From NCBI GenBank assembly GCA_030324005.1, contig JARDVH010000132.1, positions 77,814,252 to 77,878,251 on the forward strand: a stretch of DNA of 64,000 nucleotides, read 5' to 3'. The DNA is from Negaprion brevirostris (Eukaryota). How positions within the stretch are numbered: the first letter of the stretch is position 1; each line of letters starts with the position of its first letter. The translations under genes and the position numbers were made by a program. The notes beneath the pieces are model-generated. The model was not told the DNA's origin. It ran no database searches and saw only the letters and a list, made by a program, of their open reading frames with translations. Below are positions 3,925 through 4,201 of the stretch, one piece after another.

Positions 3925-3981
3925 GTAGGTTGCATTTCTCATCGGCTTCTTTTATCGTTCTGGTCTAATTGCATTGCATGA
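3925..3981 (+). CDS. HDAC9: Putative alternative C-terminal extension from intron retention (HDAC9a-like), [18 protein letters not shown]
   Basis: In-frame read-through of the 3925 donor gives 18 aa and TGA at 3979-3981. It ends NCIA*, like the human HDAC9a tail (recalled as VRFISLEPHFYLYLSGNCIA). Confidence 0.5.
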
Positions 3982-4201
3982 TTATTCCTAATTAGCTCAT
4001 TCTTCGCTGTTGCACTTTGAATTGCTGCGGATTGCAAAATTGTCCACTGGGACTCAGTCCCAGTGCAGACCAAGTGCATGGCCCCAACCAGTGCTTGTCA
4101 AGCATCGTCTGGTTGATTTTGGTATGCTCTTTGATGTTGTTTTCAAAGCTATGTTATCCAAAAATATATATTTTTCTTTCTTGGTGCCGTCCTATTTTCA
4201 G

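Follow-up and report, generated by a model that had tools for sequence, protein, structure and literature searches.

The short HDAC9 intron of the shark Negaprion brevirostris raises the question of why non-coding sequence between two deacetylase exons should look alike in shark and human: because of an alternative protein end read from retained RNA, or because of sites carried by the DNA itself. The window, a 64,000-nt stretch of contig JARDVH010000132.1 (assembly GCA_030324005.1), covers the 3' portion of a class IIa deacetylase gene of the shark, which an earlier note on this DNA had named HDAC9. The name holds: the coding exon DVHH...APDE (40 codons, 3805..3924, plus strand), orthologue of the human HDAC9 'eExon 19', is 100% identical to the shark HDAC9-like proteins P0048 and P0012. 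The intron that follows (277 nt, 3925..4201, plus strand) is of the GT-AG type, with the donor GAG/GTAGGT at 3925 and a pyrimidine-rich acceptor ending in AG at 4200-4201; both splice sites are close to consensus as judged by eye. The next HDAC9 exon, VGSG...TAF, comprises 98 nt (4202..4299, plus strand), and the one after it begins at about 60909, leaving an intervening intron of about 56.6 kb. The 277-nt intron had been described as free of repeats, and it is indeed single-copy, with one match in the genome and, among the self-BLAST matches listed for the window, none inside 3925-4201. The long intron (4300-60908) contains several interspersed repeat copies and N gaps. The VDSDT and DVHH exons should have two more between them; neither turned up in the 30 kb upstream or in positions 1-3400 of the window, where long N runs occur.

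Reading through the donor at 3925 reproduces the frame of the earlier note: 18 codons, the last four of them NCIA, then TGA at 3979-3981 (3925..3981, plus strand), a frame only, with no evidence of translation. The truncation before SAGFD is equally clear, as the product would lack the last 209 residues of P0048, SAGFD and LEGGH among them. The length of the read-through is ordinary and not above chance: at least 18 codons are reached at 40% of the 2661 GT sites within the long intron that follows (window 4400-60000) and in 47% of 10,000 shuffles of the 277-nt intron. Neither AATAAA nor ATTAAA, the two hexamers scanned, occurs within 3925-4201; the first downstream is at 4406. Four clustered TAAT/ATTA cores (3966..3995, no strand assigned; TAATTG at 3966, TGATTA at 3979, TAATTA at 3989) underlie the N-C-I-A-stop codons, which belong to the first block of the earlier note (3966-3984); presumably the cores are homeodomain sites. 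Only 0.11% of 60,355 30-nt windows hold at least four such cores, a figure that flatters the cluster, as the region was chosen after looking. In human, according to the earlier note, the tail of HDAC9a is of the ...NCIA type and is made by retention of the same intron; the tail given there differs from the shark tail by two whole codons. If the DNA of the TAAT/ATTA cluster under these codons is constrained, read-through, that of the human HDAC9a type included, would give similar residues.

The intron is spliced out. The 277-nt joint is present in 3/3 RNA-type contig sets, none of whose contigs lies inside the intron; the sets come from three related organisms, their RNA nature is guessed, and they were compared at 80% likeness over 3760-4360 only. 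They belong to the four runs examined among 24 listed (18/24 guessed to be RNA, none on record as such, all of them contigs). Contigs lose rare forms, so that intron-free cover in three runs is no more than a weak hint against retention. Among 365 proteins fetched, a set without the human isoforms, each of the 92 of the HDAC9 type (52 chondrichthyan) carries on into the exon that follows, and NCIA occurs in 0 of the 365. The conserved, regulated retention switch proposed in the earlier note is not supported, spliced forms alone being seen in these contigs and proteins. No tail of this kind came up in protein searches and cluster look-ups, which for one cluster showed 15 of its 32 members. NMD targets are often missing from gene models. 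Other truncated isoforms, ending before the DVHH exon, do appear in the shark annotations, so that the shark gene models do register short forms. The tails seen in short unnamed ORFs were set aside as unrelated read-throughs of HDAC4/5/7-type exons. In the available text of two reviews (PMC7912504, PMC8516780), human HDAC9a has 20 exons and a C-terminus 132 residues shorter; in that of PMC7532680, the name HDAC9a is applied to the full-length form. Among the matches listed for HDAC9 intron retention in the literature, none concerns the 3925-4201 intron by its title or the start of its abstract.

Likeness to human was judged via the published cloning and segment primers of the TWIST1 enhancer eTw-6 (PMC6233932, S3 Table). 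In the available part of that paper, the human element is given as 'Hdac9 eExon 19', 1101 bp, hg19 chr7:18,874,268-18,875,369, with conservation listed to 'Fish'. The reverse cloning primer has a single match in the window, 19/21 bases at 4060-4080 (0/100 shuffles matching), so that this block, common to human and without assigned strand, corresponds to the 3' end of the cloned human fragment. It is also the second of the blocks that the earlier note had likened to the human intron, the one block for which the likeness is shown; the tool-based comparison of the intron to human covers these 21 nt. With it, the note's fallback of an overlapping enhancer gains ground. The block sits 80 nt past the read-through stop.

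The segment-3 reverse primer matches 3794-3814 (18/21), that is, the acceptor and first codons of the DVHH exon, which identifies this exon as eExon 19. Three further segment primers match the 5' intron collinearly by eye, with 23/23, 15/21, and 18/22 bases, at most about 0.35 kb upstream of 3805, and one fits the short intron weakly (13/20 by eye, about 4088-4107). In all, two of the 10 eTw-6 primers were searched by tool and both match, three are clear by eye, one is weak by eye, and four were not placed. By these primer matches, the shark and human eTw-6 have non-coding sequence in common, in the same order. Because the cloning and segment-3 primers match at 4060-4080 and 3794-3814, the eTw-6 orthologue takes in the first 156 nt of the short intron. 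It extends approximately over 3000..4080 (no strand assigned; proximal 5' intron, exon, and these 156 nt), the 5' edge being estimated from the human length. The remaining 121 nt, which hold the third block of the earlier note, lie beyond the 1.1-kb fragment. Two eTw-5 primers gave no match in the window at up to 3 mismatches, the eTw-5 orthologue being expected in 4300-60908. A scan of metagenomes with a 19-nt intron motif, for vertebrate host contigs, returned 10 loci, all due to chance, with no alignment longer than 26 nt.

The human element is well characterized in the available portions of the literature. According to Birnbaum 2012 (PMC3371700), human eExon 19 is active in the mouse's posterior limb bud and its branchial arch and in the fin and arch of zebrafish; the activity requires both the exon and the proximal 5' intron, and the E11.5 limb is without Hdac9 expression. 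According to Hirsch 2018 (PMC6233932), eTw-6 contacts the Twist1 promoter, and Twist1 falls and polydactyly results when 23 kb are deleted (eTw5-7, Hdac9 exons 17-20). The full reporter labels the arch in 119/152 and the fin in 32/152 embryos, the latter falling to 0/145 when the LMX1B site is removed; LMX1B, a homeodomain factor, and TFAP2 are the inputs given for the human and mouse element. Segment 4 alone gives fin 0/70, arch 10/70, and brain 16/70, below the 30% threshold of that paper; it comprises the exon and the first part of the short intron, as placed by its reverse primer (the weak 13/20 match by eye). The same paper describes many separate enhancers at the TWIST1-HDAC9 locus, and the part seen of a preprint (10.1101/2021.08.10.455254) adds skull phenotypes. 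In zebrafish, HDAC9 itself is lost and its exon remnants lie beside the twist genes (PMC2831330, in part), eExon 19 being named as one such remnant (PMC3371700, in part). PMC11600591, by its available text, concerns another element in an HDAC9 intron. The literature search found no published account of a shark eTw-6 copy or of a shark assay.

The synteny of HDAC9 with Twist is also found at the shark locus. A bHLH domain search gave matches 150, 167, and 198 kb past the intron on the same contig. The nearest, about 150 kb downstream and on the opposite strand, is a Twist gene coding for a 166-residue protein with TWIST1 as best PDB hit (E 2e-35); by its neighbourhood, it is assigned as Twist1 rather than Twist2/3. 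The gene 17 kb beyond it, 167 kb downstream of the intron, is a FERD3L-like bHLH gene, its frame being interrupted by an N run. The third bHLH gene, about 198 kb past the intron (L014 724-1266, G000:C132), has 180 codons and a short N run.

Two other class IIa HDAC genes have Twist genes at 46 and 106 kb, so that all three genes of this class (G000:C132, C154, C31) have an opposite-strand Twist gene at a distance of 46-150 kb. The pairing at three loci fits an old HDAC-Twist block that was multiplied when the vertebrate genome duplicated. The introns of the two paralogues at the same position measure 1416 nt (GT-AG) and 846 nt (GC-AG), with read-through stops after 9 and 4 codons. An alignment of the short intron to those of class IIa paralogues, as the earlier note had suggested, gave no homology (best E 0.04, from AT-rich 14-17-mers). 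With neither similarity nor the same stop distance in the paralogues, the feature is therefore specific to the HDAC9-TWIST1 locus. In the HDAC4-like paralogue (G000:C31, minus strand), which has the GC donor and the 846-nt intron, a contig of the DNA run X20 ends loosely at the same donor.

Variation was examined in relatives. The DNA run of one related shark shows 5 changes and no indel in the 277-nt intron versus 0 in 106 flanking nt, a difference that is not significant (P 0.33); 0/5 of the changes fall within the 57-nt read-through frame, with a chance of 0.32. One of them, at 4065, is inside the human-shared block 4060-4080. It also belongs to a perfect 9-bp hairpin at 4045-4065, which holds 3/5 of the changes, those at 4057 and 4065 each breaking a stem pair. 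In related contigs, exon 19 differs at no more than 2/119 sites versus 5/100 for exon 20 (P 0.25, not significant). The folding of the intron is not beyond that of shuffles (z -1.54; 14/200 shuffles fold equally well), and Rfam gave 0 matches for the intron at E up to 1. A structured non-coding RNA in the intron was accordingly rejected: without an Rfam match, with a fold at shuffle level, and with hairpin pairs broken in a relative.

The intron is spliced from the HDAC9 mRNA, and its conservation probably reflects sites that act at the DNA level, within the orthologue of the TWIST1 enhancer eTw-6. The Twist1 enhancer would run from the 5' intron across the exon into the short intron, the first 156 nt of which would carry transcription-factor sites acting 150 kb downstream, on the Twist gene. 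We infer that the shark DNA has this activity and that its intron part contributes. The NCIA-stop would then be a by-product of constrained DNA, with the peptide itself free of selection. Several observations weigh against the enhancer reading. Segment 4, with the exon and part of the intron, is inactive in the fin when alone, and the published dissections place the activity in the exon and its 5' intron. Moreover, what fixed the end of the eTw-6 fragment was a ChIP peak together with conservation and the design of primers, and a position inside it is no proof of function. The 121 intron nt beyond the fragment, the related-shark changes with the one at 4065 inside the human-shared block, the mere 21 nt compared by tool, and the two unmatched eTw-5 primers count on the same side.

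A separate cis-element, distinct from eTw-6 proper, could lie in the intron, namely an enhancer or silencer for another tissue that serves Twist1, FERD3L, or HDAC9. This is unlikely, although nearly half of the intron is beyond the tested fragment, the locus has many distinct enhancers, and segment 4, silent in the fin, reaches 16/70 in the brain and 10/70 in the arch, under the 30% threshold in the available text of the paper. The intron abuts the very exon that is required for eTw-6 activity, and no data point to another target. The inactivity of segment 4 alone would also suit elements of the RNA, sequence or structure, that ensure that the intron is removed and the 98-nt exon defined ahead of the 56.6-kb intron. 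A short intron adjoining a very long one and the 9-bp hairpin at 4045-4065 are in line with such a role. It is nevertheless unlikely: the fold stays within shuffles (z -1.54; 14/200) and has no Rfam match, stem pairs are broken in the related shark at 4057 and 4065, the paralogues splice at the same position without these blocks, and the conservation is common to the 5' intron, for which enhancer activity has been shown.

A conserved retention switch, by which sharks, as human, would make a protein of the HDAC9a type truncated after DVHH, or else an NMD target, is improbable as well. The open 18-codon frame and its stop are there, the intron is short (277 nt vs 846 and 1416 nt in the paralogues), and the 20 exons and the loss of 132 residues given for HDAC9a in the available text of PMC7912504 and PMC8516780 fit an end at the DVHH exon; the frame is also spared by the related-shark changes (0/5 in 57 nt), though the chance of this is 0.32. 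These points are set against the spliced joint in 3/3 RNA-type contig sets, weak evidence in itself, and the 92/92 HDAC9-type proteins that read into the next exon. The splice sites are consensus-like by eye, the read-through is no longer than chance gives, and AATAAA/ATTAAA are absent from the intron. Finally, the 21-nt block shared with human is 80 nt past the stop, beyond the reach of selection on a peptide. It is very improbable that the same 60 bases are in dual use in jawed vertebrates, as DNA for the homeodomain sites of the enhancer and as RNA for a stop-carrying retained extension, leading to a deacetylase-dead HDAC9a or to decay. Were this true, the HDAC9a of human would be a regulated isoform of ancient origin.

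The DNA-level reading offers a simple account of how a read-through tail may look conserved without selection. It also draws attention to the intron 3' of eExon 19, the part that published dissections left unseparated. Finally, it adds a collinear eTw-6 copy in a cartilaginous fish to an element known from human, mouse, and zebrafish, and eTw-6 therefore likely dates to the jawed-vertebrate ancestor. Such a copy is an expected extension, the element being already listed as conserved to fish.

Among known systems, ultraconserved poison exons and NMD-coupled retained introns likewise have an in-frame stop, within conserved intronic DNA, ahead of further exon junctions. NMD-coupled poison exons, on the contrary, mostly belong to genes for splicing factors, whose alternative forms are easily observed; no alternative form was seen here, and HDAC9 is unmentioned among the matches listed from that literature. 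Compared with human HDAC9a, read-through at the shark 3925 donor would cut the protein at the matching point; unlike in human, no shark transcript or protein of such a form was found in the 3 RNA-type contig sets and 92 HDAC9-type proteins. As for eTw-6 (HDAC9 eExon 19), the shark copy occupies the same exon and flanking introns, with 121 nt of intron past the tested fragment; it is known here from its sequence, whereas the activity assays of the papers concern the human and mouse element. The regulatory coding exons of genomic regulatory blocks (Dong 2010, PMC2831330, in its available part) provide the same arrangement, a conserved element in the bystander gene HDAC9 with TWIST1 as its target. 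The case described in the part of that paper seen consists of exon remnants in zebrafish.
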